Assembly: GCA_000091165.1 (NCBI GenBank)
Contig: FP565575.1
Location: forward strand, 630,001-662,000
Length of the DNA: 32,000 bases
Origin: Candidatus Methylomirabilis oxygeniifera
Lineage (GTDB): Bacteria; Methylomirabilota; Methylomirabilia; Methylomirabilales; Methylomirabilaceae
Reading direction: 5' to 3'
Of the stretch, positions 11,172-32,000 are shown one piece after another. The notes below the pieces were generated by a model. It saw only the letters and a list, made by a program, of their open reading frames with translations, did no database searches and was not told the DNA's origin. Both the position numbers and the translations under genes were made by a program. Within the stretch, counting starts at the first letter, position 1. Each line of letters begins with the position of its first letter.

Positions 11172-12395
11172 ATGGATCGATCAGGCAAGAGTCACCTTGT
11201 AATGTTGTCGAGCCCGACCCGTGAGGCGCCGGATCGCTCTATTGACGACACGATTCCCAGCTTCAACTTTTTTGTGGCCTCTCTTTCGAATTTTTTCTTT
11301 TTCACGAATCTTAATGCCTTCAGTCTGCTTCCCCTGTATATCAAGACGCTTGGGGGAACCGAATCGCAGATCGGTTGGATCATGGGTAGCTACAGTCTGA
11401 CGGCCATTCTTGGACAGCCCGTAGCCGGGGTCCTTATTGACCGGTTCGGACGCAAACGATTCCTGCTGGTAGGATCGGCATTGGGGATGCTGGCCGCGAT
11501 CGGCTTTGCGTTCTCGACCTACCTGGATGCGCGATTCGTACTCTTTCGTATCCTGCAGGGCATCGGGTACTCCACCTTCTATATCGCGAATCTGACGCTG
11601 GTGTCTGAAATGGTTCCGTCGAGCCGTCGCGGGGAGGCGGTGGGCCTTTTCGGGATCTCCGGACTTATTACGATCGCGCTCTCTCCGGCGATCGGAGAGC
11701 AGGTCATCCATCGAGCCGGATATCCAACGTTCTTTTTGGCTGCCGCTGTCGCGGCGGCGGCCTGTCTGCTGACAAGTCTGGCGTTCCGCAATCTCCCATC
11801 GACATCCCGAGGCACTATCTCGTCGGGCTTCGCTTTCCTGATTCCATCCGCGCGCATCCTGCCGCCGATTCTCCTCTCGATGGTATTCGGCTTGGCCTCC
11901 GGGGCGGTGTTCGTATTTTTGCCGACTTACGCGATGCAGACGGGGTTGTCGCGGATCGGCGGGTTCTACATTGCATACAGCGTAGCGGCCGTCGGTATCC
12001 GATTAACCTGCGGTAAGCTGTCTGATCAATGGGGACGTCAGCGCGTGATTCTTCCCGCCCTGCTGCTTATGGCATCCGGCACCCTGGGTCTTGTCTGGCT
12101 CATTTCTCCGGTTGGTCTGCTGTTAATCGGAACGCTGACCGGAATGGCGCACGGCTTGCTGTTCCCGGCCCTGAGCGCCTATACAATCGATCTGGCGGAG
12201 TCGGATGGGCGCGGACGCGCCTTGGGTGCTTTCAGCACCGCTATGTTGCTGGGTCATGCGCTTGCAGCGTTCACATTCGGGATTGTCGCGGAGCAGTTCG
12301 GCTACCGGGCGATCTATCTTCTGGCTTCGGCCATTGCGATGACCACCTTCTGTGTATTATTGTGTGTCCGAAACAGGGCTCAGATAGTGCGATAG
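11172..12395 (+). CDS. MFS transporter
   Basis: 407 aa with about 12 hydrophobic segments. The MFS loop 2-3 motif is present as GVLIDRFGRKRFLL. The start could also be ATG 11202. Confidence 0.85.
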   Translation: MDRSGKSHLVMLSSPTREAPDRSIDDTIPSFNFFVASLSNFFFFTNLNAFSLLPLYIKTLGGTESQIGWIMGSYSLTAILGQPVAGVLIDRFGRKRFLLVGSALGMLAAIGFAFSTYLDARFVLFRILQGIGYSTFYIANLTLVSEMVPSSRRGEAVGLFGISGLITIALSPAIGEQVIHRAGYPTFFLAAAVAAAACLLTSLAFRNLPSTSRGTISSGFAFLIPSARILPPILLSMVFGLASGAVFVFLPTYAMQTGLSRIGGFYIAYSVAAVGIRLTCGKLSDQWGRQRVILPALLLMASGTLGLVWLISPVGLLLIGTLTGMAHGLLFPALSAYTIDLAESDGRGRALGAFSTAMLLGHALAAFTFGIVAEQFGYRAIYLLASAIAMTTFCVLLCVRNRAQIVR

Positions 12396-12529: not shown

Positions 12530-13441
12530 ATGGGTTGGTTCAGCGCATTATGTGAGGGCGGCGGGAAATCCGGTAAAAGGCTCATCGAGGCCTCTAAATC
12601 AGGAACTGCGGAAACGGTCACGCGCCTGTTGACTGAAGGCGTTGATGCAAATGCGGGTGATCAACATGGCTGGACGGCACTGATGTATGCGTCCTGGCAT
12701 GGACGTTCCGGAATAGTGGAGCTGCTGCTCAAGCACGGCGTCGACGTACACGCAAAGGATCATAATGGCTGGACAGCCCTGATGCGTGCAGCGTGGAAAG
12801 GGTACGCCGGGATTGTAGAGCTGCTGCTCAAGCACGGCGCCGACGTACACGCAAAGGATCATAATGGCTGGACAGCCCTGATGCATGCCTCTTGGAGAGG
12901 GCATTCCGGGGCGGTAGAGCTGCTGCTTAAGCACGGCGCCGACGTACAGGTCAGAGATAAAGACGGCTGGACGTCGCTGATGCATGCGTCCGGTCATGGG
13001 CGCTCCAGGGCGGTAGAGCTGCTGCTTAAGCACGGCGCCGACGTACAGGTCAGAGATAAAGACGGCTGGACGGCGCTGATGCGTGCATCCTGGAACGGAC
13101 ATGCCGGGGTGGTCGCGATGCTGCTGAAGCATGACGCAGATCCGAACGTGAAGGATCAGAGCGGCTGGACGGCGCTGATGCGTGCGTCCTGGCGAGGACA
13201 TTCCGGGGTGGTCGCGATGCTGCTGAAGCATGACGCAGATCCGAACGTGAAGGATCAGAAGGATGGGACGGCCCTGACACACGCGTCCGAGAGAGGGCGT
13301 TTTAGAATTGTCGCGCTCCTGCTTCAGTACGGCGCCGATATGCACGTGAAGGATTATAAACGTCAGACGGCCCTGATGTACGCGTCTTTGCATGGGCATT
13401 CGAGAGTTGCAGAGCTGCTGCAGAGACACGCCGCGTCCTGA
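12530..13441 (+). CDS. Ankyrin-repeat protein, paralog 1 (303 aa, about 9 ANK modules)
   Basis: 33-aa periodicity of DxxGWTALMxASWxGHxxxVELLLKHGADV. N-terminus is MGWFSALCEGGGKSGKRLIEASKSG. SD GGGAGGG lies 4 nt upstream of the ATG. Confidence 0.9.
   Translation: MGWFSALCEGGGKSGKRLIEASKSGTAETVTRLLTEGVDANAGDQHGWTALMYASWHGRSGIVELLLKHGVDVHAKDHNGWTALMRAAWKGYAGIVELLLKHGADVHAKDHNGWTALMHASWRGHSGAVELLLKHGADVQVRDKDGWTSLMHASGHGRSRAVELLLKHGADVQVRDKDGWTALMRASWNGHAGVVAMLLKHDADPNVKDQSGWTALMRASWRGHSGVVAMLLKHDADPNVKDQKDGTALTHASERGRFRIVALLLQYGADMHVKDYKRQTALMYASLHGHSRVAELLQRHAAS
12719..13259 (+). repeat. Three adjacent pairs of near-identical 99-bp ANK-module duplications inside paralog 1
   Basis: 12719-12785 vs 12818-12884 is 66/67 identical. 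12909-12983 vs 13008-13082 is 74/75 identical. 13104-13160 vs 13203-13259 is 57/57 identical. All three pairs are offset by exactly 99 nt. Confidence 0.9.
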
Positions 13442-13625: not shown

Positions 13626-14339
13626 ATGGGTTTCTTTAGCGCATTATTTGAAAGTGATGAGAAGCCTGTTGATAAGCTTATTGAGGCGTCCAAATCCGGA
13701 GATATTGAAAAGGTGAAAAGGCTGCTGGCTGAAGGCGCTGACGTGCATGTGATTGATAAAGATGGCGTGACCGCTCTGATGCACGCGTCTGAGAATGGGC
13801 ATACTGAGGTTATGGAGCTACTGCTCAACAAAGGCGCTGATGTGAACGCCAGAGATAAACTTGGCTGGACGGCCTTGATGCAAGCGGCCTGGCATGGACA
13901 AGCCAAGGTGGCAGAGCTGCTGCTCAATCAGGGCGCCGATGTCAATGCGCAGGCCGTGAGTGGCGCGACCGCCTTGATACGCGCGTCCGAGAAAGGACAT
14001 GCCGGGGTTGTCGGACTGCTGCTCATTCGAGGTGTTGATGTGGACGCAAAGGCGGGAGACGGCGCGACCGCCCTGATACGCGCGGCCTGGCATGGACATG
14101 CCGGGGTTGTCGGACTCCTGCTCAATCACGGCGCTGATGTGGATGCGAGAGACAACAACCGTGCGACCGCCCTGATACGCGCGGCCTGGCATGGACATGC
14201 CAAGGTGGCGGAGCTGCTGCTCAATAAAGGCGCTGATGTGAGCGCGAAGGATAATATGAATGCGACGGCCTGGATGTATGCCTCCCAGAATAAACTTTCT
14301 AAGATTGCTGAACTGCTGGACAGACACGGCGCGCGCTAA
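13626..14339 (+). CDS. Ankyrin-repeat protein, paralog 2 (237 aa, about 7 modules)
   Basis: N-terminus MGFFSALFESDEKPVDKLIEASKSGDIEKVKRLLAEGADV, followed by ANK modules. SD AGGAGGGG lies just upstream. Confidence 0.9.
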   Translation: MGFFSALFESDEKPVDKLIEASKSGDIEKVKRLLAEGADVHVIDKDGVTALMHASENGHTEVMELLLNKGADVNARDKLGWTALMQAAWHGQAKVAELLLNQGADVNAQAVSGATALIRASEKGHAGVVGLLLIRGVDVDAKAGDGATALIRAAWHGHAGVVGLLLNHGADVDARDNNRATALIRAAWHGHAKVAELLLNKGADVSAKDNMNATAWMYASQNKLSKIAELLDRHGAR

Positions 14340-15564: not shown

Positions 15565-16476
15565 ATGGGTTTATTTGGGTCACTATTTGAGGGTGGTGGA
15601 AAGCATGGCGCAAAGCTCATCGCGGCGTCTCAATCCGGAGAGACCGATAAAGTCAAGAGCCTGTTGGCTGACGGCGCCGATGTCAATGCGAAGGATCGCG
15701 AGGGCTGGACGGCTCTGATGCATGCGTCCTGGCATGGACATGCCGAGGCGGCAGCGGCACTGCTCGATCGTGGCGCTGACGTGGGGACGACGGATAACAA
15801 TGGTGGGACCGCTCTGATACGCGCGTCCTGGCATGGGCATGTCGAGATTGCGGAGCGACTGATCGCGAAAGGCGCCGATGTCAACGTGAGCGACAAAGAC
15901 AGCTTTACGTCCCTCATGTATGCGTCCGAGAATGGGCACGTGAAGGTCGTAGAGCTGCTGCTCACGCACGGCGCCGCTATCGACGCCAGGGCCGGTAATG
16001 GCCGGACGGTTCTGATGATGGCGTCTGCGGAAGGATATACTGAGGTGGTAGACCTGCTGATCAGTAAGGGCGCCGACGTCAATGTCTGGGACAAGACCGG
16101 CTGGACGGTCCTGATGTATGCATCCGGGAAGGGGCATACCGGGATTGCAGAGCGGCTGCTCGCGAAAGGCGCCGATCCGAATGCGAAGGATAGTAATAGT
16201 GTCACAGCCCTGATGCGTGCGGCTGTGAATGGGCGTTTCGGGGTCGCAGAACTGCTGCTCAAACACGGCGCCGATCTGAATGCGAAGGATAGTAATAGCG
16301 TCACAGCCCTGATGTATGCGGCCGGGAAAGGACATGCGAAGGTTGTAGAGTTACTGCTCACGCAAGGCGCGGACGTGAACGTCAAGGCGAATGATGGCGG
16401 GACGGCCCTGGAGTATGCGCATTGGCATGGGTATGATGACGTTACGGAGCTGCTTGAGAAACACGGGGCGCACTGA
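15565..16476 (+). CDS. Ankyrin-repeat protein, paralog 4 (303 aa)
   Basis: N-terminus MGLFGSLFEGGGKHGAKLIAASQSGETDKVKSLLADGADV, followed by ANK modules. SD AAAGGAGGG lies upstream. Confidence 0.9.
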   Translation: MGLFGSLFEGGGKHGAKLIAASQSGETDKVKSLLADGADVNAKDREGWTALMHASWHGHAEAAAALLDRGADVGTTDNNGGTALIRASWHGHVEIAERLIAKGADVNVSDKDSFTSLMYASENGHVKVVELLLTHGAAIDARAGNGRTVLMMASAEGYTEVVDLLISKGADVNVWDKTGWTVLMYASGKGHTGIAERLLAKGADPNAKDSNSVTALMRAAVNGRFGVAELLLKHGADLNAKDSNSVTALMYAAGKGHAKVVELLLTQGADVNVKANDGGTALEYAHWHGYDDVTELLEKHGAH

Positions 16477-16590: not shown

Positions 16591-17502
16591 ATGGGTTTCC
16601 TTAGCTCATTATTTGGGGATAGTGGGAAGCCTGTCGATAGGCTCATCGAGGCGTCGAAGTCCGGAGACATCGAAAAAGTCAAGCGCCTGCTGGCCGAAGG
16701 CGCCGATGTGAACGAGAGAGATGCGGATGGCTGGACGGCCCTGACACATGCGTCCTGGCATGGCCATGCCCCGGTTGTCGAGCTGCTGCTGAATAAAGGC
16801 GCCGATGTGCATGTGAGAGACAATAAAGGCTTTTTGGTTTTGATTCATGCGTCTTGGAGGGGGCATGTGGAGGTTGTCGAGCTGCTGCTGAATAAAGGCG
16901 CCGATGTGCATGTGAGGAATGAAGACGGCGGGATAGCCCTGATGCGTGCGTCCGAGAAAGGGCATACCCCGGTGGTCGAGTTACTGTTGAATAAAGGCGC
17001 CGATGTCAACATGAGGGATCAGAATGGTTGGACTTCCCTGATGCGAGCGTCCTGGTATGGGCATGCCCCGGTGGTCGAGCTACTGTTGAATAAAGGCGCC
17101 GATGTCAACGTGAGAGATCAGAATAGCGGAACGCCCCTGATGCATGCGTCCAAACATGGATATGCCCCAGTAGTCGAGCTGCTCCTGACTCAAAGCGCTG
17201 ATGTGAATGCCAAGGCGGGTAGTGGCGTGACCGCCCTGATGTATGCATCTGAGTATGGATATGCCGGGATTGTCGAGCTGCTCCTGGCTCAAAGCGCTGA
17301 TGTGAATGCCAAGGCGGATAATGGCGCGACCGCCCTGATGCTGGCGTCTGGGAACGGGCATACCGGGTGTGTGGAGCGGCTCCTGACTCAAGGCGCTGAT
17401 GTGAAGGCGAAGGATTATAATCGTCGGACGGCCCTGATGTATGCCACGTCTAACGGGCATACTCAGGTAGCTGAGCTGTTGCAGAAGCACGATACACACT
17501 GA
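16591..17502 (+). CDS. Ankyrin-repeat protein, paralog 5 (303 aa)
   Basis: N-terminus MGFLSSLFGDSGKPVDRLIEASKSGDIEKVKRLLAEGADV, followed by ANK modules. SD AAAGGAGG lies upstream. Confidence 0.9.
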   Translation: MGFLSSLFGDSGKPVDRLIEASKSGDIEKVKRLLAEGADVNERDADGWTALTHASWHGHAPVVELLLNKGADVHVRDNKGFLVLIHASWRGHVEVVELLLNKGADVHVRNEDGGIALMRASEKGHTPVVELLLNKGADVNMRDQNGWTSLMRASWYGHAPVVELLLNKGADVNVRDQNSGTPLMHASKHGYAPVVELLLTQSADVNAKAGSGVTALMYASEYGYAGIVELLLAQSADVNAKADNGATALMLASGNGHTGCVERLLTQGADVKAKDYNRRTALMYATSNGHTQVAELLQKHDTH

Positions 17503-18427: not shown

Positions 18428-18857
18428 GACGACGCTGCAGAATGTCACATATAGCCCCCTCTATCGAGAGCCTGTTCCGGACTCAACCTGGGGGGTGAGC
18501 GTGGGTTTTCCCTTGAACTCAGCGTAATCTCTCTGATAAGTGTGTCAGCCATTTCTGCCACCATCTCCCGCTTGATGCCCTCTTCGGTTCTGGCGTCGTG
18601 AAATACCAGAGAGGGCCGAGCCGGGTGCGACGCACGCGGTCATGTCGCGCATCGCGCTCAAGGGGTTCCCGGAAAGACCGGGCAGGAGGAAACCGTGGTT
18701 GCACCTGGGCTGGATACGTTCCGGGTGGCCCGCTTCAAAGTCGCGCCTGAAGCGAGGGGCCGGCTCCGCCTTCTCGATCACACGGGTTCCGTCCTCTGCC
18801 TCTCGCACATCGGCCCGCGCGGTGACGGCGCGCGCCGGACGCGCCGGAGTGCGGGAC

Positions 18858-20855
18858 ATGTCTGAGGATCTTAGCCCGAAGTATCAGATCACCACCCCGG
18901 ACGATGCCTACTGGCGCCAACAGATCAAGTGCCAGGACGCCTGCCCCGTACACACGGATGCCCGCGGCTACGTGAACGCGATCGCCGACGGCGATCCCGA
19001 GCGCGCGTACATCATTGCCCGCGAGCCGAATCCTTTCGCCTCGATTTGCGGCCGGGTGTGCGCCGCGCCCTGCGAAGCCGCCTGCCGCCGGGGCGATCTT
19101 GACGCGCCTATCGCCATCCGCGCCCTTAAGCGCTTCGTGACCGAGCGCTACGGCGTGGAGGCCCCGCTGCGGGCCGACCGGGCCCGCCCGTCGATCGAGG
19201 CGACGGGTCTCCACCTGGTGGAGGCAAGCCCGATCGTCCGGGAGATCCGAAACGTCGAGGACGCCACCGCCCTGCGGCGGGTCGGCCTGGCCGAGCACGC
19301 GGGGACGGGCAAGCGCGTGGCCGTGGTCGGCTCCGGCGTGGCGGGCCTGACCTGCGCGCACGACCTGGCCCTGCTCGGGTATCGGGTGACGGTCTTCGAG
19401 AAGCAGACGGTCCCTGGCGGGATGCTCATGCTCGGCGTCCCCGAGTACCGCCTCCCCCGGGACCTGGTGCGGGCAGAGATCCAGGCCATCCTCGACCTGG
19501 GCGTGGAGCTGAAGACGAACGCAGCCATCGGGCGGGACTTCGCGCTGGCCGACCTGCGGGCCCAGGGCTTTGAGGCAACGTTCCTGGCCATCGGGTGTCA
19601 CAAGGCGCGTGGGCTCCCGATCGAGGGAACCGAACTGGACGGCGTCTTCCGGGCGGTGGAGTTCCTCCTCAATATCAACCTCGGCTTCAAGGTCGACCTG
19701 GGCCGGCGCGTGATCGTGGTGGGCGGCGGGGACGTGGCGATGGACGCGGCCCGCACTGCCGCCCGCGAGATGGCCGGGGTGGATCCCGTCGCGGCCATGC
19801 GCGAGGCCATGGACGTCGCCCGCGAGGCAGTCCGCGCGGGCGCCCGCGAGGTGCGGGTCGTCTGTCTCGAGTCCTGGGACGAGATGCCGGCCCAGCGCTT
19901 CGAGATCGAGGAGGCCCTGGCGGAGGGGCTCGCTATCTTCCCGCGCCTCGGACCGAAGCGCATTGTGGGTCAGGAGGGCAGGGCGGTCGGCCTGGAGACG
20001 ATCCGCGTGAGCCGCGTCTTCGACGAGCAGCGACGCTTCAGCCCCCGGTTCGTGGAAGGGACGGAGCAGGTGATGGCCGCCGACTCGATCATCCTGGCTA
20101 TCGGGCAGGCGCCGGACCTGGCGTTCCTCGGTCCAGAGGATGGCGTTGCGATCACCCCCCGCCAGACGATCCAGGTAGACTCGGCCACGCTGGCTACCAC
20201 CGCGCCCGGGGTGTACGCCGGCGGCGATGTGGCGTTCGGCCCGCGCATTTTCATCGAGGGTGTCGCCAACGGGCACCGCGCAGCCCGCTCCATCCACGAA
20301 TATCTGAGCGACCGGCGCTTTGCCCTCTCGACCAGGGCGGAGTGGGTCCGCCTCGATCACGACCGCCAGGTCCTGCAGGGAGAGGCCGGAACCGAGCCGG
20401 CCTTGCCGCGCGTGTATCCCGGCTATCGGGCGACGCCGCGCCGCGAGCCGCCTGGACTGCCCATCGACCGGCGCATCGGAATCGCCGAAGTGGAACTGAA
20501 GTACCCGGACACCCAGGCCCAGGCCCAGGCCCAGCGCTGCGTCCGGTGCGGGATCCACACGATCTTCGACGGCACAACGTGTATCCTGTGCGGCGGGTGC
20601 GTGGATGTCTGCCCCGAGTACTGCCTGCGTATGGTTCCCATCGACCAACTCGCCGGCGACGATGCCGTGACGTCCCTCGTTGAATCGCTCACCGGTTCCC
20701 CGCAATCCGCAACCCCCGTCGCGGCCTCAGCCGCCACCGCGATGCTCATGGATGCGACCCGCTGTATCCGCTGCGCCCTGTGCGCGATGCGGTGTCCCAC
20801 GGGCGCCATCAGCATGGAGGCGTTTCGCTATGTCGAAACCTGGGTCCTCGCCTGA
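18858..20855 (+). CDS. GltD-like (glutamate synthase small-subunit family) NAD(P)H:acceptor oxidoreductase with C-terminal 2x[4Fe-4S] ferredoxin domain
   Basis: Start taken at ATG 18858 (MSEDLSPKYQ...); the track's upstream extension looks like noncoding read-through. An N-terminal Cys cluster (CQDACPVHTD...ICGRVCAAPCEAACRRG) is followed by a dinucleotide fold VAVVGSGVAGLTCAHDLALLGYRVTVFEKQTVPGGMLMLGVPEYRLPR and a second fold VIVVGGGDVAMDAART. The C-terminus carries CVRCG...CILCGGCVDVCP and CIRCALCAMRCP. Confidence 0.85.
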   Translation: MSEDLSPKYQITTPDDAYWRQQIKCQDACPVHTDARGYVNAIADGDPERAYIIAREPNPFASICGRVCAAPCEAACRRGDLDAPIAIRALKRFVTERYGVEAPLRADRARPSIEATGLHLVEASPIVREIRNVEDATALRRVGLAEHAGTGKRVAVVGSGVAGLTCAHDLALLGYRVTVFEKQTVPGGMLMLGVPEYRLPRDLVRAEIQAILDLGVELKTNAAIGRDFALADLRAQGFEATFLAIGCHKARGLPIEGTELDGVFRAVEFLLNINLGFKVDLGRRVIVVGGGDVAMDAARTAAREMAGVDPVAAMREAMDVAREAVRAGAREVRVVCLESWDEMPAQRFEIEEALAEGLAIFPRLGPKRIVGQEGRAVGLETIRVSRVFDEQRRFSPRFVEGTEQVMAADSIILAIGQAPDLAFLGPEDGVAITPRQTIQVDSATLATTAPGVYAGGDVAFGPRIFIEGVANGHRAARSIHEYLSDRRFALSTRAEWVRLDHDRQVLQGEAGTEPALPRVYPGYRATPRREPPGLPIDRRIGIAEVELKYPDTQAQAQAQRCVRCGIHTIFDGTTCILCGGCVDVCPEYCLRMVPIDQLAGDDAVTSLVESLTGSPQSATPVAASAATAMLMDATRCIRCALCAMRCPTGAISMEAFRYVETWVLA

Positions 20856-21348
20856 GTCGATCGACAACAGTCCGGACAAGGGACGGATCTCGCGCCGCGT
20901 CCTGCTGGGGACAGGCTGGTGCGGGTTCCTGCTCTCCATCGTGGGCCCCGCCCTGGCCAACATCCGCTTCCTCTTCCCCAACGTCGTGTACGAGGGCCCC
21001 ACACTGCTCAAGGTAGGACGCCCGGAGGACTACGCGTCGGGAACGATCACGTTCCTGGATGAGCAACGGCTCTTCATCATGCGGGACCCCGAGGGGCTCC
21101 GGGCGCTGTCGGCCATCTGCACGCACCTGCGGTGCACCACCGGACCCTTTGTGCCGCCGACCGCCGAGTGGAAGGAGGCCCACTCGCGCTGCCCGTGCCA
21201 TGGCAGCATCTTTGCTAAGGACGGCCGGGTCCTCCAGGGACCGGCCCCACGGCCCCTCGATTTCTATCGGGTCAGCCTCGCCCCGGATGGCCGCCTCGTG
21301 GTCGACACGGCTGCCGTCGTAGACAAGGGGGATGTCCTGAAGGTGTAG
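20830..21348 (+). CDS. Rieske [2Fe-2S] protein with twin-arginine-like signal anchor
   Basis: Start at ATG 20830 (MSKPGSS...) overlaps the upstream stop by 26 nt. SRRVLLGTG is followed by a hydrophobic segment. Rieske boxes CTHLRC and CPCHGS are present. Confidence 0.9.
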
Positions 21349-21437
21349 GCAAGAGGCCGAAGGCAAGTGCGAGGCCATCATCGCTTCGGCTGATCGCCGT
21401 CGGGAGACGGCTCCTGCCCGGACCACTGGAAGCCCAG

Positions 21438-22934
21438 GTGTGCTTGGGAGCCATGATGACAGACGGACGGACGAGCGGGATCATCAATCGCGTGACTGCG
21501 AGCCGGCTGTGGAAGTCGGTCTTTCGGCACGGCTATCCGGCCACGGATCTGGACCGGATGTCCGCCATGTTTACCAACTTCTTCCTCCACCTCCTCCCGG
21601 CCAAGGTCCATCCGAACAGCCTGCGCCTTACCTACACCTGGGCCCTGGGGATGGTCACCTTCTACCTCATGGTCATCCAGTTCGTGACCGGCTTCCTCCT
21701 GATGTTCTTTTACATCCCGGTCACGGACCTGGCCTACCACAACATGAAGGATCTCCAGTTCGCCGTCTCCTTCGGCCTCCTCCTCCGCAACATGCACCGC
21801 TGGGCGGCCCACGGAATGGTGGCGCTGGTGTTCCTCCACATGGGCCGCGTCTTCTACACAGCCTCGTATCGCCCGCCCCGCGAGTTCAACTGGACCATGG
21901 GCGTTCTCCTCTGGCTGGTGACGCTGTTCCTCAGTTTCACGGGGTACCTCCTCCCGTGGGATCAGCTTGCCTTCTGGGCCATCACGGTGGGTACGAGCAT
22001 TGCCGGCTACCCGCCCTGGATCGGGGAGACCATCCGGACGCTGATGCTCGGCGGCCATCAGGTCGGGCAGGGCGCCCTGCTGCGCTTCTACGTGCTCCAC
22101 GTTGCGATCCTTCCCGCGATGCTCTGCCTCCTGGTGGCGATCCACTTCTGGCGGGTGCGGAAAGACGGCGGCCTCTCTCGGCCGGAGGGCCCGTCGCCCA
22201 AGCGCACCGCCATCCCGGTCGCCGGGGGGCGGTTCGTTCCCGGGCCGCAGAAGACCTATACCCTGATGGAGGTTGTGCGCGGAACCTCGCCGATGGTGGG
22301 GGCGCAGAGGCCGGAGGACGAGGTTCCCGCCTGGCCCCACCTCCTCTTCCGGTTGGTCGTCCTCTTCCAGGTCGTGCTGGGTGTTGTCGTCCTCCTGGCC
22401 ATCGTGTTTGACGCCCCCCTGGAAGAGCTGGCCAACCCCACGCACCCGCCGAACCCGGCCAAGGCGCCCTGGTACTTCCTGGGCCTGCAGGAGTTGGTGA
22501 GCTACTCGGCCCTGGTGGGGGGCGTGGTGATCCCCGGCCTCCTGGTCCTGGGTCTGATGGGTATCCCGTACATCGATCGCACGCGGGAGGGGGAGGGGAT
22601 ATGGTTCACGTCGGCCCTGGGGAAGCGGATCGCGGCATGGTCATTCGTGGGGACGATCCCGTACACCATGGGCCTCCTATTCCTGAACGCTCGCTTCGGC
22701 GTGCGGCAATTCGCCCCCGAGGCCCCGCAGGGGGTCGTGGACCTGCTCAACCCGGCCACGCTGCTCCTGGCTGCCATCGTTGCCTTCTCGGTCATCGTCG
22801 GCTGGCGCACCGGCTCGCGCCGGATGGCGGCCATCGCCCTCTTCTCGGCCTTTGTCTCGGCCTACGTGCTCCTGATGATCATCGGGACGTACTTTCGCGG
22901 TCCCAACTGGGACTGGGCGCTGCCATGGCGTTGA
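21438..22934 (+). CDS. Cytochrome b (long, fused b6 plus subunit-IV-like form)
   Basis: Up to 498 aa. Heme-ligand His pairs occur in [20 protein letters not shown] and [37 protein letters not shown] and the PEWY-equivalent region [16 protein letters not shown] are present. The start is ambiguous between GTG 21438 and ATG 21453/21456. Confidence 0.9.
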
Positions 22935-22986
22935 AAGCCGGGATTGGGGGTTGGGCGTTGGGGGTTAGCGGGAAGAGAGGCAGGGG

Positions 22987-23778
22987 ATGAGTCGGCGATG
23001 GGTGTGGGCATTCGCTGTGTTGGGCGTCTTCAACGGGCTCCTCTTCCTGGTTGCCCTCTGGCGCGACTATGACCGGGAGTGGAAGCGCTACCAGACGGCC
23101 TTTTTCGCCCTCGAGGGCCGCAAGGCGCGGACGGCCCGGGAGGAAGAGGCCGTGAAGGCCCGCCGGCACGAGTTCATCCAGGTCGCCGTAGCGGGGACGG
23201 CCAGGGTGGACCGGTGCATGATGTGCCACCTCGGCATCGAGGATCAGCGGTTTGCCGACGCGCCGCAGCCGTTCCGGAGCCACCCGGAGATCCCGAGACA
23301 TCCCTTCGAACGCTTCGGGTGTACCGTCTGCCACGGGGGGCAGGACATGGCCACGACGAAGGCCGATGCCCACGGGCGTGTCCCGTTCTGGGAGGAGCCG
23401 CTGCTGGAGGGGGAGTACCGCCAGGCTGCCTGCGGCGGCTGCCACCTCGGCGGCGACGTACCGGGCGCGCCGCTGCTGGCCCAGGGGCGGCAACTCTACC
23501 TCCAGCGGGGCTGCGTCGCGTGTCACCGGATCCGCGGCATGGGCGGGATGGTTGGGCCGGACCTGACGTTCGTGGGGAGCCGCAAGCACGATCCTGAATG
23601 GTACATACGACACTTCAAGGACCCGCAGGCCACGGTGCCCGGCTCGACCATGCCCCCCTTCAAACACCTGCCGGAGGCGGAGCTGAAGGCGTTGACGGTC
23701 TATATGCTGAGTCTGCGCGAGATGCCGTCGGCCCTCCTCCCGGCACCCCGAACGGCGGCAGCCTCAGGAACGCAATAA
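22987..23778 (+). CDS. Membrane-anchored tetraheme c-type cytochrome
   Basis: 263 aa with an N-terminal hydrophobic anchor WVWAFAVLGVFNGLLFLVALW. It has four CxxCH motifs: CMMCH, CTVCH, CGGCH, CVACH. Confidence 0.85.
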   Translation: MSRRWVWAFAVLGVFNGLLFLVALWRDYDREWKRYQTAFFALEGRKARTAREEEAVKARRHEFIQVAVAGTARVDRCMMCHLGIEDQRFADAPQPFRSHPEIPRHPFERFGCTVCHGGQDMATTKADAHGRVPFWEEPLLEGEYRQAACGGCHLGGDVPGAPLLAQGRQLYLQRGCVACHRIRGMGGMVGPDLTFVGSRKHDPEWYIRHFKDPQATVPGSTMPPFKHLPEAELKALTVYMLSLREMPSALLPAPRTAAASGTQ

Positions 23779-24472: not shown

Positions 24473-24748
24473 TTACGCCGGAGAATGATTCTTGAGCCAC
24501 TCGCGTAAAGCGGCATCAACGCGAGTTTGCCAACCCTCTCCACTTTCGCGGAAACGTTCCACCACTTCCCGCGATAACCGAATGGTGATGCGTTCTTTTG
24601 TTGGAGTTTTCTGAGGGCCACGCACACCCAGTTTCTTTCTGAGCGATGCCGGTAATACCTCAGCGGCCGGCTTGAATTTCGTCATATCTTCGGCGGTGAG
24701 TTCACGAACTTCGCCGTCTGCGCTAATCAGTGGCTTGCGGCTTGCCAT
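24473..24748 (-). CDS. brnA: BrnA-type antitoxin (ribbon-helix-helix)
   Basis: 91 aa. The C-terminus ERITIRLSREVVERFRESGEGWQTRVDAALREWL matches the BrnA pattern I recall (IxIRLdxdvlexFkaxGkGYQTrIN). It overlaps brnT by 26 nt. Confidence 0.8.
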   Translation of the reverse strand: MASRKPLISADGEVRELTAEDMTKFKPAAEVLPASLRKKLGVRGPQKTPTKERITIRLSREVVERFRESGEGWQTRVDAALREWLKNHSPA

Positions 24749-25001
24749 ATCGAATTACCTCTCTTGCGTTGGCCTTACGAAAGCTGATTACCCGGATGCC
24801 GGTTTCAGTTTCGGTGAAACATAGCACATGCAGCCTGCGATCCAGATAACAAAGCGCAATGTAACGGGTTTCGCCGTATGTCTTTCGAGTGTCTGGGAAC
24901 ACCAGCGCAGTATTGAAATCGACCTCCGCGGCTCGCTCGAACGAGAGTTGGCGCTCTTTGATGTTTCTCTCGTTCTTGATCGGATCGAAGTCGACTTTCA
25001 T
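24723..25001 (-). CDS. brnT: BrnT-type toxin (DUF497)
   Basis: 92 aa. MKVDFDPIKNERNIKERQLSFERAAEV...RYIALCYLDRRLHVLCFTETETGIRVISFRKANAREVIRY fits the DUF497/BrnT pattern. The toxin-first gene order is typical for BrnTA. Confidence 0.8.
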   Translation of the reverse strand: MKVDFDPIKNERNIKERQLSFERAAEVDFNTALVFPDTRKTYGETRYIALCYLDRRLHVLCFTETETGIRVISFRKANAREVIRYGKPQATD

Positions 25002-25008
25002 GTACTAC

Positions 25009-25037
25009 ATCGTATGCACAAATAAGTGGTACGTCAA
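25009..25037 (-). promoter_or_regulatory. Candidate promoter for brnTA, probably producing a leaderless or near-leaderless mRNA
   Basis: On the minus strand: TTGACG (25037-25032), a 17-nt spacer, TACGAT (25014-25009), then 7 nt to the brnT ATG at 25001. The -35 overlaps the stop codon of the upstream channel gene. GTATGCACA occurs twice as a direct repeat (25012-25020 and 25045-25053), which could be an operator. Confidence 0.4.
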
Positions 25038-26104
25038 GTGTTTTGTATGCACAGACACCTGCTGAGCTGGTGCATGAGCCCGATGAAGACGGCCGCCCAT
25101 GCGCCGAAGGCCACGTAGACGAAGTAGTGGGGGATCATCATGAGGATCGGCAATTCCGTTACCTCTGCCAATCGGAATGTGCAGACCGTGTACATGCCCA
25201 AAGGGAAGACAGCCCCCCAGTACAACGGGTCGTATGCCAGCGGGAACCTCCGCATGACGTGTCTCCACACCCCCACCGTGACGAGCATCGGGATCCACCA
25301 CGTCGCAGTCGCCCAAAAGAGCAGGGTCATCCCGTAGAGAAACGGCAGCATGCGTTGCAACAGGTCGAAATCCGGGGCTTTACCGATCAGCACCGTACCG
25401 GCCAGCGTCGAGATAGCCATCGCTCCCATGTTGATCCAGTAGGGGGGTGTGAGGTCGGCCGGTGAGAACGGAAAGAAGAGGTAACGGTAAAAGACCAGAG
25501 AGATGATCCAGATATAGAGCATGCCGCCGAACAGCCACATGACCAGCGCGAAGAACAGGGTCACCTCACGGTATAGTTCCGATTGCTGGGCGATCAGCCC
25601 GCCGAGAACGGCAATCGCCTGCGTCGCGACAACACTGAGGAGCCATCCGCCATTGATACCCTCCCTGAGAGAGGGTTTCGCCCGCTTTGTCACAAAGCCG
25701 GTAAACATCCCGTAGGTCAAACCCGCATACAGCACCACCGCCAGAAACCATAGCGCCACCGCTGCCTGCTGACTTTTGCCTGCCAGGAACAGTTGAGTGC
25801 CGAGTACACCACACGCGGCGACGGTAGTAAAAAAGCCCGGTCCGCGGCTGTGATTCAAGAGATCTGCGGTGAAACGCCGCGGGAATCGGATAATCCGCAG
25901 ACCCGTCAACAGCCAGAGCACCGCGAAGGCGATCACGTTGAGCCAGAGCAGCGCTTCGGCGATCACCTCCATCCCCTGGAGGCGGGCTGCAATCGAGATG
26001 ATGCCGGTCGCCATGACGAGTCCGAAGTAGGCGGGGTGCAGACCCCTGATACCCTTCCGGACCGCTGCCGGCCCCCCCAACGATGCTCCTGGCTTTCGCG
26101 TCAC
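25034..26104 (-). CDS. TehA/SLAC1 (TDT) family anion channel/transporter
   Basis: 356 aa with about 10 TM segments. N-terminal HPAYFGLVMATGIISIA and the general layout are typical of the tellurite-resistance/dicarboxylate transporter family. It has a GTG start with GAGGA 4 nt upstream. Confidence 0.75.
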   Translation of the reverse strand: MTRKPGASLGGPAAVRKGIRGLHPAYFGLVMATGIISIAARLQGMEVIAEALLWLNVIAFAVLWLLTGLRIIRFPRRFTADLLNHSRGPGFFTTVAACGVLGTQLFLAGKSQQAAVALWFLAVVLYAGLTYGMFTGFVTKRAKPSLREGINGGWLLSVVATQAIAVLGGLIAQQSELYREVTLFFALVMWLFGGMLYIWIISLVFYRYLFFPFSPADLTPPYWINMGAMAISTLAGTVLIGKAPDFDLLQRMLPFLYGMTLLFWATATWWIPMLVTVGVWRHVMRRFPLAYDPLYWGAVFPLGMYTVCTFRLAEVTELPILMMIPHYFVYVAFGAWAAVFIGLMHQLSRCLCIQNT

Positions 26105-27767: not shown

Positions 27768-29290
27768 CCCCGTGCCGGTTCTTTCTGACTGCCGGGAAAA
27801 CGAGTGAACCCCGCCTCGCGTTTCTGTGTGAGAGGATCGCGGGTCGATTCGATAGACTGCTCACGTTTGAGCGGCGGCACAACGAACCGTTCCTCATACG
27901 TGGGCAGCGAGGTGAGTCGGAAAATAGCCTCGGCCTCCTCCGGTGTCATATCGGCATCGGCCAGGGCTCGCGCGACATCCGCGTCGTTGAGATCGACGAC
28001 GGTTTGCCACCGCTTAAACATCCGCACTGTAATCAGCCGTTTCATCACGTCTTCGATCAACCGTTCGTTGCCCGCCGCAAACAGGCTTGCCAGATACTTG
28101 ATGGGGACGCGGGCCTTCTCCAGGATCAGGTTGAACTGAGGCGCCATCCCCTCCGCGCCTGTCCCATCGATCTCGTAGGCCCCGGTCGCTTCCCGGATCG
28201 TCGCCTGAAGCGGCTGAAGCGGCGGCACGTAAAACAGCATCGGCAGCGTGCGAAACTCCGGATGGAGGGGTAGCGCGATCCTCCATTGCTTGAAGAATTT
28301 ATAGACGGGAGAGTTTCTGGCAGCCTCGATCATATCGTCGCCGATGCCGTTGCGCTTGGCCGCCGCCACGACCTGTTCGTCGTGCGGATTAAGCACCATC
28401 TCCCGCTGAGCGTCAACCAGGCGATCATCGGGGACGCCGGCCGCCGATCGGATCTGATCCGCATCGTACAGCAGCACACCCAGATAGCGAATCCGGCCCA
28501 CGCACGAATGAAAACAGGCGGGGGGCTGTCCGCTTTCCAGCCTGGGGTAACACAGAATGCACTTCTCGGACTTCCCGGTCTTCCAGTTGAAGTACGGTTT
28601 CTTGTAGGGGCAGCCCGAGATGCACATCCTCCAGGCGCGGCATTTGTCCTGGCCGATGAGCACGATCCCGTCCTCTCCCCGTTTATAAATGGCGCCGGCC
28701 GGACAGGCGGCCACGCATCCGGGATTTGCGCAGTGGTTGCAGATCCGGGGCAGATAGAAGAAGACCATCCGCTCGATTTCGTTCAGCGACGCTCGCTCCG
28801 CCTCAGTGAGGTTCTTCAGGTTGGGATCGTTCTTCGCGTAGACGGGGGAACCGCCTAGATCATCGTCCCAGTTGGGGCCGGCCTCGATCTCCATGTATTC
28901 GCCGGAGATCATCGATTTGGCCCGGACCGCGGGCTGATCGTCCCCCTCGGGCGCCGAAAACAGTTTCTCGTAATCGTAATCGAACGGCTCGTAATACTCG
29001 TCGACCGTAGGCAGGTAGGGATTGAAGAAGATGTTGGCCAGCGCACCGAGTCGGCCCTGTAATCGGAGTCTCAGCTCATCCCCATTCTGCTCGAATCCGC
29101 CTTTATACCGTTCCTGATCCTCCCAGCGGGTCGGGTAGCCGGTACCGGGTTTGGTCTCCACATTGTTCCACCACATGTATTCGGCCCCTTCCCGGTCGGT
29201 CCAGATGTTCTTGCAGGCCACGCTACACGTGTGGCACCCGATACATTTGTCCAGGTGGAAGACCATTGATACCTGCGCACGAGGATCCAT
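27761..29290 (-). CDS. narH: Respiratory nitrate reductase beta subunit (Fe-S)
   Basis: 509 aa with CIGCHTCSVACK, CNHCANPGCVAACP, CRAWRMCISGCPYKKPYFNW and CILCYPRLESGQPPACFHSCVGRIRYLG. The N-terminus MVFHLDKCIGCHTC is canonical NarH. Confidence 0.95.
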   Translation of the reverse strand: MDPRAQVSMVFHLDKCIGCHTCSVACKNIWTDREGAEYMWWNNVETKPGTGYPTRWEDQERYKGGFEQNGDELRLRLQGRLGALANIFFNPYLPTVDEYYEPFDYDYEKLFSAPEGDDQPAVRAKSMISGEYMEIEAGPNWDDDLGGSPVYAKNDPNLKNLTEAERASLNEIERMVFFYLPRICNHCANPGCVAACPAGAIYKRGEDGIVLIGQDKCRAWRMCISGCPYKKPYFNWKTGKSEKCILCYPRLESGQPPACFHSCVGRIRYLGVLLYDADQIRSAAGVPDDRLVDAQREMVLNPHDEQVVAAAKRNGIGDDMIEAARNSPVYKFFKQWRIALPLHPEFRTLPMLFYVPPLQPLQATIREATGAYEIDGTGAEGMAPQFNLILEKARVPIKYLASLFAAGNERLIEDVMKRLITVRMFKRWQTVVDLNDADVARALADADMTPEEAEAIFRLTSLPTYEERFVVPPLKREQSIESTRDPLTQKREAGFTRFPGSQKEPARGW

Positions 29291-29314
29291 CAGGTTACCC
29301 TCCGGAATCGCTCT

Positions 29315-29896
29315 TTAGCCACGAATGTCTTTGTCCCATTCATACAGATCTTTTCCCTCGACCAGGGCGCGCTCGCGGGCCTGCAGGATCCGAATCAATG
29401 CATCCTGCGGCAGGGTTTCAATCAGCAGTGTCAGACCTGCCGTGCAGGCCACCTGCATCAGCAACGCGTGGATCAGCATTCGACCCTGCTCAATCTGTTC
29501 TTCTCCGCCTGGAGACGTTGAGAGCAGTCCCTCCAGTCTGCGAACGTGCCGAATCACCAGATCGTGGGCTGCTGTCAGTTCACGAAGCTGTTCACTGCCG
29601 ATGTGATGATCGAGCGCAGGCAGGACCGCATCCTCCTCATAGCGAAACGACGTCCCGCAAAATCTCTTGATCTGCAGGAGGAGCGACCGGGCCTGCTCAC
29701 GATTGCCCTGCAGCATGGCGTCTTCCAGCTCCGTCAGGCAATCCCGCATCTTGCGGTAGCCATGCCAGAGGTGGACGAGCAGGGCGGCCAGGATCGCCTG
29801 ACGATCCTTTGACTCTATGGTGCCGATGGGATTATCCATCGGGACTGACATCGGATTCAGCGTCTGCTCCATCTGCTCAACCCAGGCGTCTTGCAT
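29315..29896 (-). CDS. 193-aa all-helical protein inserted between narG and narH; tentatively hemerythrin-like (HHE) four-helix bundle
   Basis: It is tightly packed: 7 nt after the narG stop and 24 nt before the narH start (GGAGGG SD). Helical segments carry His/Glu patterns: LLVHLWHGYRK, FRYEEDAVLPALDHH (resembles HxxxEExxLFPxL), LTAAHDLVIRHVRRLE, MLIHALL. The functional call is weak. Confidence 0.65.
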   Translation of the reverse strand: MQDAWVEQMEQTLNPMSVPMDNPIGTIESKDRQAILAALLVHLWHGYRKMRDCLTELEDAMLQGNREQARSLLLQIKRFCGTSFRYEEDAVLPALDHHIGSEQLRELTAAHDLVIRHVRRLEGLLSTSPGGEEQIEQGRMLIHALLMQVACTAGLTLLIETLPQDALIRILQARERALVEGKDLYEWDKDIRG

Positions 29897-29903
29897 CAGC
29901 GCG

Positions 29904-32000
29904 TTAATCCCATTGTAGTTTGTCCATTTTGCGCACCAGACAGTAGGTGTTGCGCGTCATGATCCCGATCGGTCCTAGTGAGTTGAATCCGTACGACCAC
30001 TGGCCGTATCCCCCGGCGAGCTGGACCGGGTTCACCCGCGTGCGGGTCAGGCTGTTGTGGCCACCGGCCCGCCGTCCGCGAAGCTGTGACTTCGGCACGT
30101 AGATCGTCCGTTCGACCGCGTGATAATACAGGCAGGTGCCGGACTGGACACGGGAGCTGACATTGGCCCGGGTGACCACCACGCCGTTGTCGTTGTAGAC
30201 CTCTACCCAGTCGTTATCCTTGAGGCCCACGCGGGCGGCGTCTTTATCGTTGATCCAGATCGGATCCATGCCCCGCGACAAGGTGAGCATGCGGTGATTA
30301 TCTTTGTAGGTGGAGTGGATGTTCCACTTGCCGTGGGGCGTAATGTAGTTCAGGAGCAGCGCGCGTTCATCCTGTCCGCTTTCGGTGATGTCATGGATCA
30401 GGACCGGGTCGAGTTTTGGCTTGTAGGTCGGCAGGTTCTCGCCGAAGTCGATGAAATAGGGGTGATCAAGATACAGATGCTGGCGGCCGGTCAGCGTGCG
30501 CCAGGGCACAAGCCGCTCCACCATCATCGTCCAGGCGGAGTAGGCGCGTCCGTCGTTGGTCATCCCGCTCCAGCAGGGAGAGATCAGCGTGCGCCTGGGC
30601 TGCCGTTTCAGATCGCCGAAGTTCAGCCGCAGGCTGCGGTGGCCTTCGGCCATGTCCGCAAGCTCCACCCCGACCAGTTCCCCTTTGGCCTTGAAGCCTT
30701 CGTAGCAGATTTCGCCGTTGGTTTCCGGCGACAGGTGCAGGATCAGGTTGGCGGCATCCAGCGCCGTTTCGAGCGAGGGGTACTTCTGCCCGCCCCATGA
30801 GACCGTCCGCTTGTGGCGGGGGTCCGGAGATCCTCCCTCTGGGTACTCCAGCAGTTCGTCGTAGAATTTCCCGATGGGAATGGGGCCCCAATTGTGGCCG
30901 GTCAGCCCGTCCTCGCGCACCTTCCGCCCGAACGAGATGAATTTCTGATAGAGCTTCGAGTAATCGCGTTCGACGATCTTCAGATGGGGAAAATTGCGAC
31001 CGGGTTCGAGCGGATCGTTCTGACCCTTCCAGTCCACGACCTCCCGCTGAGCCATCTCGTCCGGGCAATTGGCGCTGAGCGGGGCGGCGACCAGGTCCTT
31101 CACGGGACCGTCAAATGCATACCCGGCCATCTCCGAGACTCGCTTGGCCAACGCCTTGAAGATGTCGAAATCACTCCTGGCCTCCCAGGGCGGATCGACG
31201 GCCTTCCCGAGGTTGTGAATGAACGAGTGCAGGTCGGTCGTGTTCAGGTCGTCTTTCTCGTACCAGAAGGCGGTGGGAAGGACGATGTCGGAATAGACGG
31301 CCGAGGTATCCATGCGGAAGTTGATGTCCACCACCAGGTCCATCTTGCCTTCCGGGGCCTTCCCTGTCGCCTTGACGTCCTTGGCGGTTCCATTCACCCG
31401 TTCCTGGGCGATCAGGTTGTGATGGGTGCCCAGGTAGTGGCGCAGAAAGAACTCGTGACCCTTGGCGCTGGATTGAATGGCGTTTCCACGCCAGATCAGC
31501 CAGACCCTCGGCCAGTTCTCCGGAGCATCCGGGTTCTCGACGGAGAGTTCGAGCGTGCCCGTCCTGATCGCGTCGAGTACGTATTGCACGATCTCCTCCG
31601 CACTCTTTGCGCCGGCCTGCTCCGCCTCACGAATGACCTCGATCGGATTCCTGTTGAACTGCGGGTAAAACGGCATCCAGCCAAGGCGAACGGAGCGGGC
31701 CACATGATCTGCGGCATGCCCCTTTGCCCACTTGACGTCATTCGGCAGCGGGGCGTATTCCGTAAACTCCCCCTCGTACCGCCACTGATCGCTCATAATG
31801 TAATGCCACAAGGGGGTCTGCTGGAGGCGCGGGGGTTTCAACCAGTCGTTCGCGAAGGCGACAGGTTTCCATGCTGCGGCCAGTGTCAGTTTCTCCTGTC
31901 CGACGTAATGGTTGAGTCCCCCGCCGTTCACGCCGCAGCAGCCGCACAGGATCAGCGCGGTGGACGGCCCACGGTAGACAAGGTTGTTGTTGTACCAGTG
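29904..32000 (-). CDS. narG: Respiratory nitrate reductase alpha subunit (Mo-bisMGD), 5' end outside the window
   Basis: The reading frame is open to the window edge (own translation HWYNNNLVYRGPSTALILCGCCGVNGGGLNHYVGQEKL...). This long C-terminal region is NarG-like, including the GGGxxHYVGQEK motif. A narH-narJ-narI context follows downstream. Confidence 0.95.
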   Translation of the reverse strand, partial: HWYNNNLVYRGPSTALILCGCCGVNGGGLNHYVGQEKLTLAAAWKPVAFANDWLKPPRLQQTPLWHYIMSDQWRYEGEFTEYAPLPNDVKWAKGHAADHVARSVRLGWMPFYPQFNRNPIEVIREAEQAGAKSAEEIVQYVLDAIRTGTLELSVENPDAPENWPRVWLIWRGNAIQSSAKGHEFFLRHYLGTHHNLIAQERVNGTAKDVKATGKAPEGKMDLVVDINFRMDTSAVYSDIVLPTAFWYEKDDLNTTDLHSFIHNLGKAVDPPWEARSDFDIFKALAKRVSEMAGYAFDGPVKDLVAAPLSANCPDEMAQREVVDWKGQNDPLEPGRNFPHLKIVERDYSKLYQKFISFGRKVREDGLTGHNWGPIPIGKFYDELLEYPEGGSPDPRHKRTVSWGGQKYPSLETALDAANLILHLSPETNGEICYEGFKAKGELVGVELADMAEGHRSLRLNFGDLKRQPRRTLISPCWSGMTNDGRAYSAWTMMVERLVPWRTLTGRQHLYLDHPYFIDFGENLPTYKPKLDPVLIHDITESGQDERALLLNYITPHGKWNIHSTYKDNHRMLTLSRGMDPIWINDKDAARVGLKDNDWVEVYNDNGVVVTRANVSSRVQSGTCLYYHAVERTIYVPKSQLRGRRAGGHNSLTRTRVNPVQLAGGYGQWSYGFNSLGPIGIMTRNTYCLVRKMDKLQWD

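Follow-up and report, generated by a model that had tools for sequence, protein, structure and literature searches.

The window analyzed here comprises 32,000 nucleotides of contig FP565575.1 (positions 630,001 to 662,000, forward strand) from Candidatus Methylomirabilis oxygeniifera, hereafter M. oxyfera, and includes a nitrate reductase/nitrite oxidoreductase (Nar/Nxr) operon in which a 193-residue open reading frame (ORF), here called X, separates narG from narH. Sequence profiles place X securely, by descent, in the hemerythrin/HHE superfamily, within an unnamed family of ~165-residue proteins; nevertheless, a functional di-iron site binding O2 or nitric oxide (NO) is unlikely, because four of the six ligand positions are replaced. 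With somewhat better than even confidence, X is proposed to be an accessory protein of Nar/Nxr, either a holdase or a factor for assembly or protection, acting by protein contact with no di-iron O2/NO binding.

Family assignment

X matches the hemerythrin HHE profile PF01814 with 24.4 bits (E 4.4e-5), narrowly missing the gathering cutoff of 25.3 bits, whereas its orthologues (28.2, 30.5, and 26.8 bits) and its ligand-bearing relatives, hereafter the canonical members (44.8-50.6 bits, E 2e-11 to 3.5e-13), all exceed it. Hemerythrin is the sole Pfam match of X, and the sole NCBIfam match is a weak one to bacteriohemerythrin (E 0.14); specific NCBIfam models were matched neither by X nor by canonical members, which disclose only a weak, 26-bit likeness to the PA2171 family. 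A search of PDB chains with the single sequence of X gave no match.

The relationship becomes clear at the level of profiles. Eight sequences of the nar-embedded, Methylomirabilis-type subfamily of X, searched as a profile against 1.84 billion representatives (E<=1e-3), retrieved 106 relatives, mostly of ~160-170 residues and aligned to X residues ~46-192. Their canonical consensus reads F.EHR..RD ... GPHFRYEEEaLYPaL ... HD.aI ... l.HVsDCdGLsi.vE.LP....iL.ARe.a...dLl.Wa..vR, and the proteins bear the public names 'hypothetical protein' or 'hemerythrin domain-containing protein'. The alignment of the X subfamily with 41 canonical members by hhalign reaches 99.9% probability (E 1.4e-32, 148 columns, 36% identity), and a hidden Markov model (HMM) built from these 41 members, with the subfamily left out, recovers X with E 1.8e-38 (127.6 bits). 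The description of X as hemerythrin-like in the initial annotation is therefore upheld as a statement of ancestry. The canonical family occurs in Anaerolineae, Actinomycetota (Nonomuraea, Streptosporangium), Acidobacteriota, Ca. Jettenia, Nitrospinae, and Haloferax. In a rough neighbor-joining tree the X subfamily forms one separate clade. The canonical copies placed after narG do not group together in this tree, whose resolution is too low to separate one ancestral insertion behind narG from several independent ones.

Loss of the di-iron site

The ligands were identified by alignment to solved hemerythrins, with residue counts taken over 154 canonical sequences (Table 1). The helix-1 His and the helix-2 H-F-x-Y-E motif align to His23 ('TQH' of the 136-residue chain) and His59/Glu63 ('VEHFGYEE') of DcrH-Hr (E 2.7e-5), and the helix-3 HD of the family aligns to the 'EHD' of bacteriohemerythrin 4xpx; helix 4 carries the H-x4-D/E spacing of hemerythrin ligands. 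The initial annotation had pointed to the His/Glu spacing of the peptide FRYEEDAVLPALDHH, residues 84-98 of X, and had one expected His replaced, which understates the loss: Y47, S83, Q148, and A153 occupy four of the six ligand positions, leaving E87 and H111. In addition, X reads QVACTAG where the family motif is HVSDC(D/E)G. By textbook hemerythrin chemistry, X has lost both positions that correspond to the His ligands on the iron to which O2 binds, together with one bridging carboxylate. With these positions lost, the suggestion that X is a di-iron O2/NO-binding protein becomes unlikely.

The pattern extends to the whole subfamily, in which Y47 and A153, the counterparts of the canonical His and Asp, are invariant, and in which Cys152 is changed to Thr or Met throughout, with no Cys conserved. 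The other positions differ from member to member: (i) H83 is retained only in P0130, a distant member, and in the protein of a metagenome-assembled genome (MAG) at locus L004; (ii) position 148 is Gln, His, or Arg among close orthologues; and (iii) H111 is absent in P0130. This variability of the remaining ligands indicates, as far as sequences can tell, relaxed constraint after inactivation of the site. H97 and H98 (...ALDHH) were considered as ligands and ruled out, being not conserved among orthologues. Consequently, of the expectation that a profile match would be accompanied by conserved metal ligands, the similarity to PF01814 stands, with orthologues passing the cutoff, and the conservation of ligands in the X subfamily does not.

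Architecture and predicted structure

The AlphaFold2 model of X, computed from a 58-sequence alignment, is all-helical (pLDDT 88, pTM 0.81), as the initial annotation had anticipated. It superseded a first run with eight close orthologues, which gave pLDDT 78, fused helices 2 and 3 into one of 61 residues, and returned generic bundles in Foldseek. The search of the PDB with the 58-sequence model likewise gave no Foldseek match at E<=0.001, the helical bundles being generic; the best natural matches are hemerythrin-like (6q09, which is Rv2633c-like, 3cax, and DcrH-Hr). The predicted fold is thus compatible with hemerythrin yet not diagnostic, and the assignment rests on the sequence profiles.

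The model comprises a four-helix core followed by two C-terminal helices and preceded by an N-terminal extension (Table 1). The canonical family aligns to X only from residue 46 or 47, and its conservation with the X subfamily is strongest in the C-terminal block GL..l.E.LP...iL.ARE.A...dLl.W..vR. The extension displays the subfamily motif WVEQME..NPM..PMDNP......KDR..ILA..LvH.WH., although residues 1-30 are predicted with low confidence (pLDDT 50-68). The invariant residues of the subfamily in or before helix 1 are M9, E10, P15, N22, P23, D31, R32, H42, W44, H45, G46, and Y47.

Conservation and purifying selection

X has nine close homologues, all Methylomirabilis-like: eight span the full length, with 66-93% identity, and the ninth is a truncated fragment. 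The 90% cluster of X contains proteins assigned by name to Candidatus Methylomirabilis sp. and to M. tolerans. The reading frame is unbroken in all full-length orthologues, and ~50 alignment columns are invariant across the subfamily, including P0130, which is 42% identical and whose 982-bp contig runs directly into the narH start MDLRAQVSMVFHLDKCI. The ratios of nonsynonymous to synonymous substitution rates (dN/dS), obtained by the Nei-Gojobori method with X comparisons at dS 0.8-1.8, are 0.17-0.32 for X and 0.15-0.30 for NarJ, compared with 0.055-0.093 for NarH and 0.065-0.14 for NarI. By this measure purifying selection acts on X, which evolves as fast as the chaperone NarJ and not as slowly as the catalytic subunits, and its dN/dS rules out a spurious ORF. 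Three plus-strand ORFs that overlap X (29266-29670, 29325-29606, and 29546-29812) are, in our judgement, shadows of the conserved minus-strand gene.

M. lanthanidiphila (L001-L003) preserves the order cytochrome c-narG-X-narH-narJ-narI, and MAG GCA_046757565.1 (L004/L015), labelled Gammaproteobacteria, displays narG-X-narH-narJ-narI with a 223-residue X between narG and narH, and supplies the closest NarH beyond the genus (83% identical). On the other hand, two other close NarH relatives at 70-72% identity, from a Rokubacteria locus (L007/L008) and from L006, have no X inserted. The presence of the ORF in related nar operons, as the initial annotation would have it, is accordingly confirmed for the closest operons and not for two of the next-closest that were inspected. 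A metagenome scan for the extended subfamily returned only a single close copy, plus two or three more distant members, and the subfamily is therefore rare.

Two observations concern these comparison loci themselves. The Nar proteins of GCA_046757565.1 are 66-86% identical to those of Methylomirabilis, far closer than those of the other non-NC10 genomes examined, a likeness that suggests, from sequence comparison, either that the narG-X-H-J-I block was transferred horizontally in its entirety or that the contig was assigned to the wrong bin. In L006, an opposite-strand gene for a 79-residue DUF433 protein (6676-6915, minus strand) occupies the narG-narH gap; the narG-narH junction seems tolerant of insertions.

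Organization of the nar operon

The ORF list of the window discloses five successive minus-strand ORFs in the order narG-X-narH-narJ-narI. The initial annotation located X exactly: X has its own start, separated from the narG stop by 7 nt, and ends 24 nt short of narH. The view taken there that X shares a transcript with narG and narH is very likely correct, because both spacers are short and no terminator-like sites occur in them; neither junction, narG-X or X-narH, contains promoter-like or terminator-like sites. The spacers of L001 match those of the window (7 nt and 24 nt), and the NarG of the window is 91% identical to that of M. lanthanidiphila.

The two downstream starts differ in strength. 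The narH ATG at 29290 is preceded, 7 nt upstream, by GGAGGG, a strong Shine-Dalgarno sequence, whereas X has only a weak Shine-Dalgarno-like GGGAT, ~11 nt before its ATG and within the 3' end of narG. In L004 and L073 the narG stop and the start of X, or of its relative, overlap, an arrangement suggestive of translational coupling. Given an ATG 7 nt past the narG stop and a weak ribosome-binding site, X is probably produced at a low level by translational coupling to narG.

The nar cluster of M. oxyfera has been reported as Damo_0774-0779, with NarG as Damo_0778 and grouping with the NxrA of Nitrobacter and Nitrococcus (PMC6094997). By gene order X would be Damo_0777, in agreement with the gene number that the initial annotation described as skipped between narG and narH.

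Table 1. Features of the nar operon in the window and ligand-equivalent positions of X, with residue counts among 154 canonical family sequences
Feature	Position in window	Strand	Canonical residue	Residue in X	Remarks
narG, 3' part	29904..32000, runs past window end; stop 29904-29906	minus			TIGR01580 6.2e-206 on C-terminal 675 aa; Molybdopterin and Molydop_binding domains (Pfam/NCBIfam)
narG-X spacer, 7 nt	29897..29903	minus			CGCGCTG
X, 193 aa	29315..29896; stop 29315-29317	minus			ATG start; degenerate hemerythrin-like
X N-terminal extension, residues 1-45	29762..29896	minus			specific to nar-embedded Methylomirabilis-type subfamily
X four-helix hemerythrin-like core, residues 46-159	29420..29761	minus			predicted helices 32-62, 66-99, 101-126, 132-159
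X residues 160-193 and stop	29315..29419	minus			two predicted C-terminal helices, 164-180 and 184-192; E160 TLP...ILQARERALVEGKDLYEW..R
X position 47	29756-29758		H 143/154	Y47	
X position 83	29648-29650		H 142/154	S83	
X position 87	29636-29638		E 145/154	E87	
X position 111	29564-29566		H 144/154	H111	
X position 148	29453-29455		H 130/154	Q148	
X position 152 (Cys)			C 140/154	T	
X position 153	29438-29440		D/E 145/154	A153	
X position 160			E 133/154	E160	
X-narH spacer, 24 nt	29291..29314	minus			Shine-Dalgarno GGAGGG 29298-29303
narH, 509 aa	27761..29290	minus			TIGR01660 1.3e-190
narJ-like chaperone gene, 299 aa	26868..27767	minus			PF02613; TIGR00684 6e-13
narI, 227 aa	26175..26858	minus			PF02665 3e-68

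Genomic context of the family

The association with nar reaches beyond Methylomirabilis. A 21-sequence alignment scanned against one genome per GTDB species retrieved 128 relatives, the loci of 80 of which were examined, with nar proximity assessed by tblastn using the Nar proteins of the window and true narG/narH defined as at least 40% identical and within 8 kb. By these limits narG or narH lies near the family gene in 14 of the 80 loci; among the 33 that extend at least 6 kb on both sides, the number is 9. A random gene would be expected this near a nar operon in well under 1% of cases, as a rough estimate. The family gene directly follows narG in five of the 80 loci (L015, L029, L051, L061, and L073). 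These include (i) canonical, ligand-intact copies between narG and narH in L029 and L061, both from Anaerolineae, and in L073, from Thermodesulfobacteriota, and (ii) L051, also from Anaerolineae, in which the contig ends ahead of any narH. The canonical post-narG copies have a strong Shine-Dalgarno sequence or a start that overlaps the narG stop. Other arrangements comprise narGHJI followed by the family gene in L044 (Streptosporangium) and a family gene convergent with narI in L020 and L024.

The commonest immediate neighbor of the canonical family is a DsrE/DrsE_2-like gene (10 of 150 neighbors), followed by NarG, NarH, NarI, other hemerythrins, major facilitator superfamily (MFS) transporters, and radical-SAM proteins. 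In Nonomuraea (P0135), a span of 3.3 kb that includes a multicopper oxidase gene separates the family copy from a divergent narG, and a narK-like MFS gene lies immediately downstream of the copy; the plasmid copy of Haloferax gibbonsii (L095) stands among genes for NosL, a qNor-like oxidase, RIC, NifU, and rhodanese. Searches of plasmids returned nar operons of Thermus, E. coli, and similar ones, and one Haloferax family member. Taken as sequence neighborhoods, these recurring contexts hint at N-oxide respiration and at iron-sulfur (Fe-S) and sulfur trafficking. Hemerythrin-like genes in clusters with nitrate and NO reductases are mentioned in passing for GAL08 Acidobacteria (PMC8787282).

Several details of these loci deserve mention in their own right. 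Examples of the DsrE-like neighbor are found at L090 1723-2136, L093 8453-8866, and L080 8474-8902, and include anammox (Jettenia) and Dehalococcoidia loci. In L061, a stretch of ~550 nt (8454-8995) between the hemerythrin-like gene and narH holds a small ORF with a hydrophobic product starting MYRWVVFMHIAATFGFLLAHG; a small ORF apparently also follows the hemerythrin-like gene in L051 (8454-8910). Judging from L061, the narG-narH junction can hold two inserted genes. In the L004 MAG, the ~5 kb that follow narI encode a classical bacteriohemerythrin of 142 residues (11756-12184, plus strand) that the family HMM does not match, along with a Crp/Fnr regulator and a radical-SAM protein; an intact hemerythrin therefore coexists with a degenerate X.

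Comparison with known systems

X shares with the PF01814 hemerythrins (DcrH-Hr 2awc and 2avk, the Methylococcus bacteriohemerythrin 4xpx, and 6q09) the profile similarity and the predicted four-helix bundle, but differs from them in lacking four of six ligand positions and in displaying the ~45-residue N-terminal extension and two extra C-terminal helices; on these sequence grounds metal or O2 binding by X is not expected. With the unnamed ~165-residue family it shares homology over residues 46-193, the C-terminal block, and the post-narG placement, whereas the canonical members, unlike X, retain the full set of H, HxxxE, H, HxxxxD/E, and Cys152, lack the N-terminal extension, and possess strong ribosome-binding sites of their own.

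The proteins RIC, YtfE, ScdA, NorA, and DnrN are hemerythrin-like di-iron proteins of N-oxide respiration clusters and have in common with X an Fe-S-rich enzyme close by and the idea of shielding Fe-S clusters. NorA of R. solanacearum figures in a paper that deals with how NO is detoxified in denitrification (PMC9045102). Nevertheless, X is not a protein of this group: RIC models and the ScdA_N domain gave no match at E<=1 for X or for two canonical members in Pfam and NCBIfam, the metal ligands are lacking in X, and the coexistence of a RIC gene and a family member at one Haloferax gibbonsii locus marks them as distinct proteins.

A positional parallel is NxrX of Nitrobacter (nwi_0775), encoded between nxrA and nxrB in the cluster nwi_0773-0780, described as a peptidyl-prolyl isomerase and proposed to aid folding of the enzyme (PMC4786786). 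NxrX takes the position of X in a collinear cluster for a related cytoplasmic enzyme but differs in fold and family, a comparison made from the published description. The parallel drawn in the initial annotation thus stands, on present evidence, for position only, X having no such isomerase domain. X and NxrX look like independent occupants of the alpha-beta junction, with the DUF433 gene of L006 as a third kind.

The proposed function of X is modelled on NarJ, the non-catalytic partner of NarG, which belongs to the same operon as X, is likewise all-helical, and evolves under relaxed purifying selection of equal range. The two proteins have no sequence relation, with PF02613 unmatched by X, and X is restricted to its clade whereas NarJ, to our knowledge, is universal in narGHJI operons. 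By this analogy, X may hypothetically work like NarJ though unrelated to it. The maturation of respiratory nitrate reductases is generally described with NarJ as the single dedicated chaperone.

Proposed role and alternative explanations

The proposal of an accessory protein acting by contact can be cast as a sequence of evolutionary steps. X descends from a di-iron hemerythrin-like family (H, HxxxE, H, HxxxxD, and a conserved Cys) recurrently found beside narGHJI in many phyla, and the ancestral protein would have performed di-iron chemistry in Nar-containing cells, probably to shield Fe-S clusters from NO or O2 or to repair them. The gene of the Methylomirabilis-type lineage became fixed between narG and narH, gained the conserved N-terminal extension of ~45 residues, and lost the di-iron site by the changes His47 to Tyr and Asp153 to Ala, with the other ligands decaying differently by lineage. 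The protein-binding function alone would have been kept and elaborated through the C-terminal helices and the N-terminal extension, and X would now serve as a holdase, assembly, or protection factor for NarG/NarH of a cytoplasmic, Nitrobacter-type Nar/Nxr, alongside an unusually long NarJ. We infer for X the absence of metal, binding to NarG/NarH, and a role in assembly. Three facts weigh against this proposal: (i) almost all members keep E87, H111, and E160, and these residues may point to a mononuclear site that has persisted; (ii) the family is not linked to nar exclusively, the DsrE-like gene being its commonest neighbor, and its ancestral function need not be Nar-specific; and (iii) the Nar proteins were reportedly undetected in the M. 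oxyfera proteome (PMC6094997), the expression of X being a prediction.

The conserved residues just mentioned also underlie an alternative in which X is still a metalloprotein, with a mono- or binuclear site remodelled from H42, H45, Y47, E87/E88, H111/D112, and E160 that senses or scavenges NO or O2. The organism is believed to produce both gases internally, the descent from a di-iron family is secure, H42, W44, H45, G46, Y47, E87, and E160 are invariant in the subfamily, P0130 included, and the family occurs in settings of N-oxide stress and Fe-S repair (RIC, NifU, and the qNor-like oxidase in Haloferax; the narK-like MFS and multicopper oxidase genes). Against it, the helix-1 and helix-2 His positions and the helix-4 His and Asp/Glu positions are Tyr, Ser, Gln, and Ala, position 148 varies among Gln, His, and Arg in close orthologues, and H111 is gone in P0130; moreover, H45 and H42 precede position 47, which faces the core, by 2 and 5 residues and, by helix register, probably lie outside the same core layer. 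This explanation is considered unlikely, and its extension, that a site rebuilt from H42/H45/Y47 and E87/H111/E160 couples Nar/Nxr to NO/O2 and that the family is a widespread unrecognized factor for Fe-S protection or repair in Nar/Nxr, decidedly more so. A stoichiometric extra subunit of the mature enzyme, for instance one that biases it toward nitrite oxidation or supports higher-order assemblies, would suit a gene placed between those of the alpha and beta subunits, strictly syntenic in a clade whose NarG groups with NxrA (PMC6094997), but is improbable to a similar degree: the evolutionary rate of X matches that of NarJ and exceeds those of NarH and NarI four- to fivefold, its ribosome-binding site is weak compared with the GGAGGG of narH, and two close NarGH relatives (70-72% NarH identity) dispense with it.

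Two further explanations fare worse. That X is a decaying, functionless hemerythrin remnant or a spurious ORF would agree with the lost ligand residues, with a PF01814 score just under the gathering cutoff, and with the same undetected Nar proteins (PMC6094997), but the intact frame, dN/dS of 0.17-0.32, ~50 invariant columns, the conserved N-terminal extension, and the confident fold prediction make it highly improbable. There is hardly any likelihood that X is a homologue of NxrX sharing its proposed folding role as a peptidyl-prolyl isomerase: the gene order (cytochrome c, alpha, X, beta, narJ, gamma/nxrC) is alike in nwi_0773-0778 (PMC4786786) and L001, but X contains no rotamase domain at E<=1 and is firmly hemerythrin-like.

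Neighboring genes

The NarJ-like protein of the operon has a NarJ domain over residues ~20-150 only, followed by a C-terminal extension of ~150 residues, apparently of low complexity. The extension is conserved (66-70%) only in L001 and L004, loci that carry the extended X subfamily; the NarJ proteins of other relatives comprise 204-233 residues and can be aligned only to about residue 165-182. Directly downstream of narI, the minus strand encodes a 356-residue anion channel of the SLAC1/TDT family (25034-26104, PF03595 2e-52), and a SLAC1/TDT-type gene also follows nar in the Rokubacteria locus L007. A 'C4-dicarboxylate transporter' is reported at nwi_0780 of Nitrobacter (PMC4786786). The SLAC1/TDT protein may be a nitrite/nitrate channel of the nar operon.

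Just downstream of the nar-SLAC1 block lies a BrnT toxin/BrnA antitoxin pair (24473-25001, minus strand; PF04365 2e-21 and PF14384 2e-23). The plus strand contains, at 18642-23778, genes in a row for a GltD-like Pyr_redox_2/Fer4_20 protein (737 residues), a cytochrome b (498 residues), and a c-type cytochrome (263 residues), a trio that may constitute an electron-transfer module near the nar operon. In addition, a tandem array of ankyrin-repeat paralogues, unusual for a bacterium, occupies 12530-13441, 13626-14339, 15565-16476, and 16591-17502 of the plus strand, with products of 303, 237, 303, and 303 residues (Ank_2, E 1e-50 to 2e-84); three 303-residue genes are likewise found near the nar operon of M. 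lanthanidiphila (L001, 13724-16582).

Significance

Gene X is annotated in public genomes yet undiscussed in the searchable literature, which yielded nothing on it under the tag DAMO_0777 or under hemerythrin combined with either Methylomirabilis or nitrite oxidoreductase. Within the same literature, no description is apparent of the family's association with nar or of the subfamily that lacks the ligands. The inference of O2/NO sensing in Methylomirabilis from the label 'hemerythrin domain-containing' is probably wrong. If the proposed accessory role is true, the assembly or protection of Nar/Nxr would involve, besides NarJ, another recurrent partner encoded in the operon, intact and hemerythrin-like in Chloroflexi, Actinomycetota, haloarchaea, and anammox bacteria, and present as a ligand-less derivative in NC10. 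X of NC10 would then exemplify a metalloprotein scaffold that survives the loss of its metal site, a 'pseudo-hemerythrin'.

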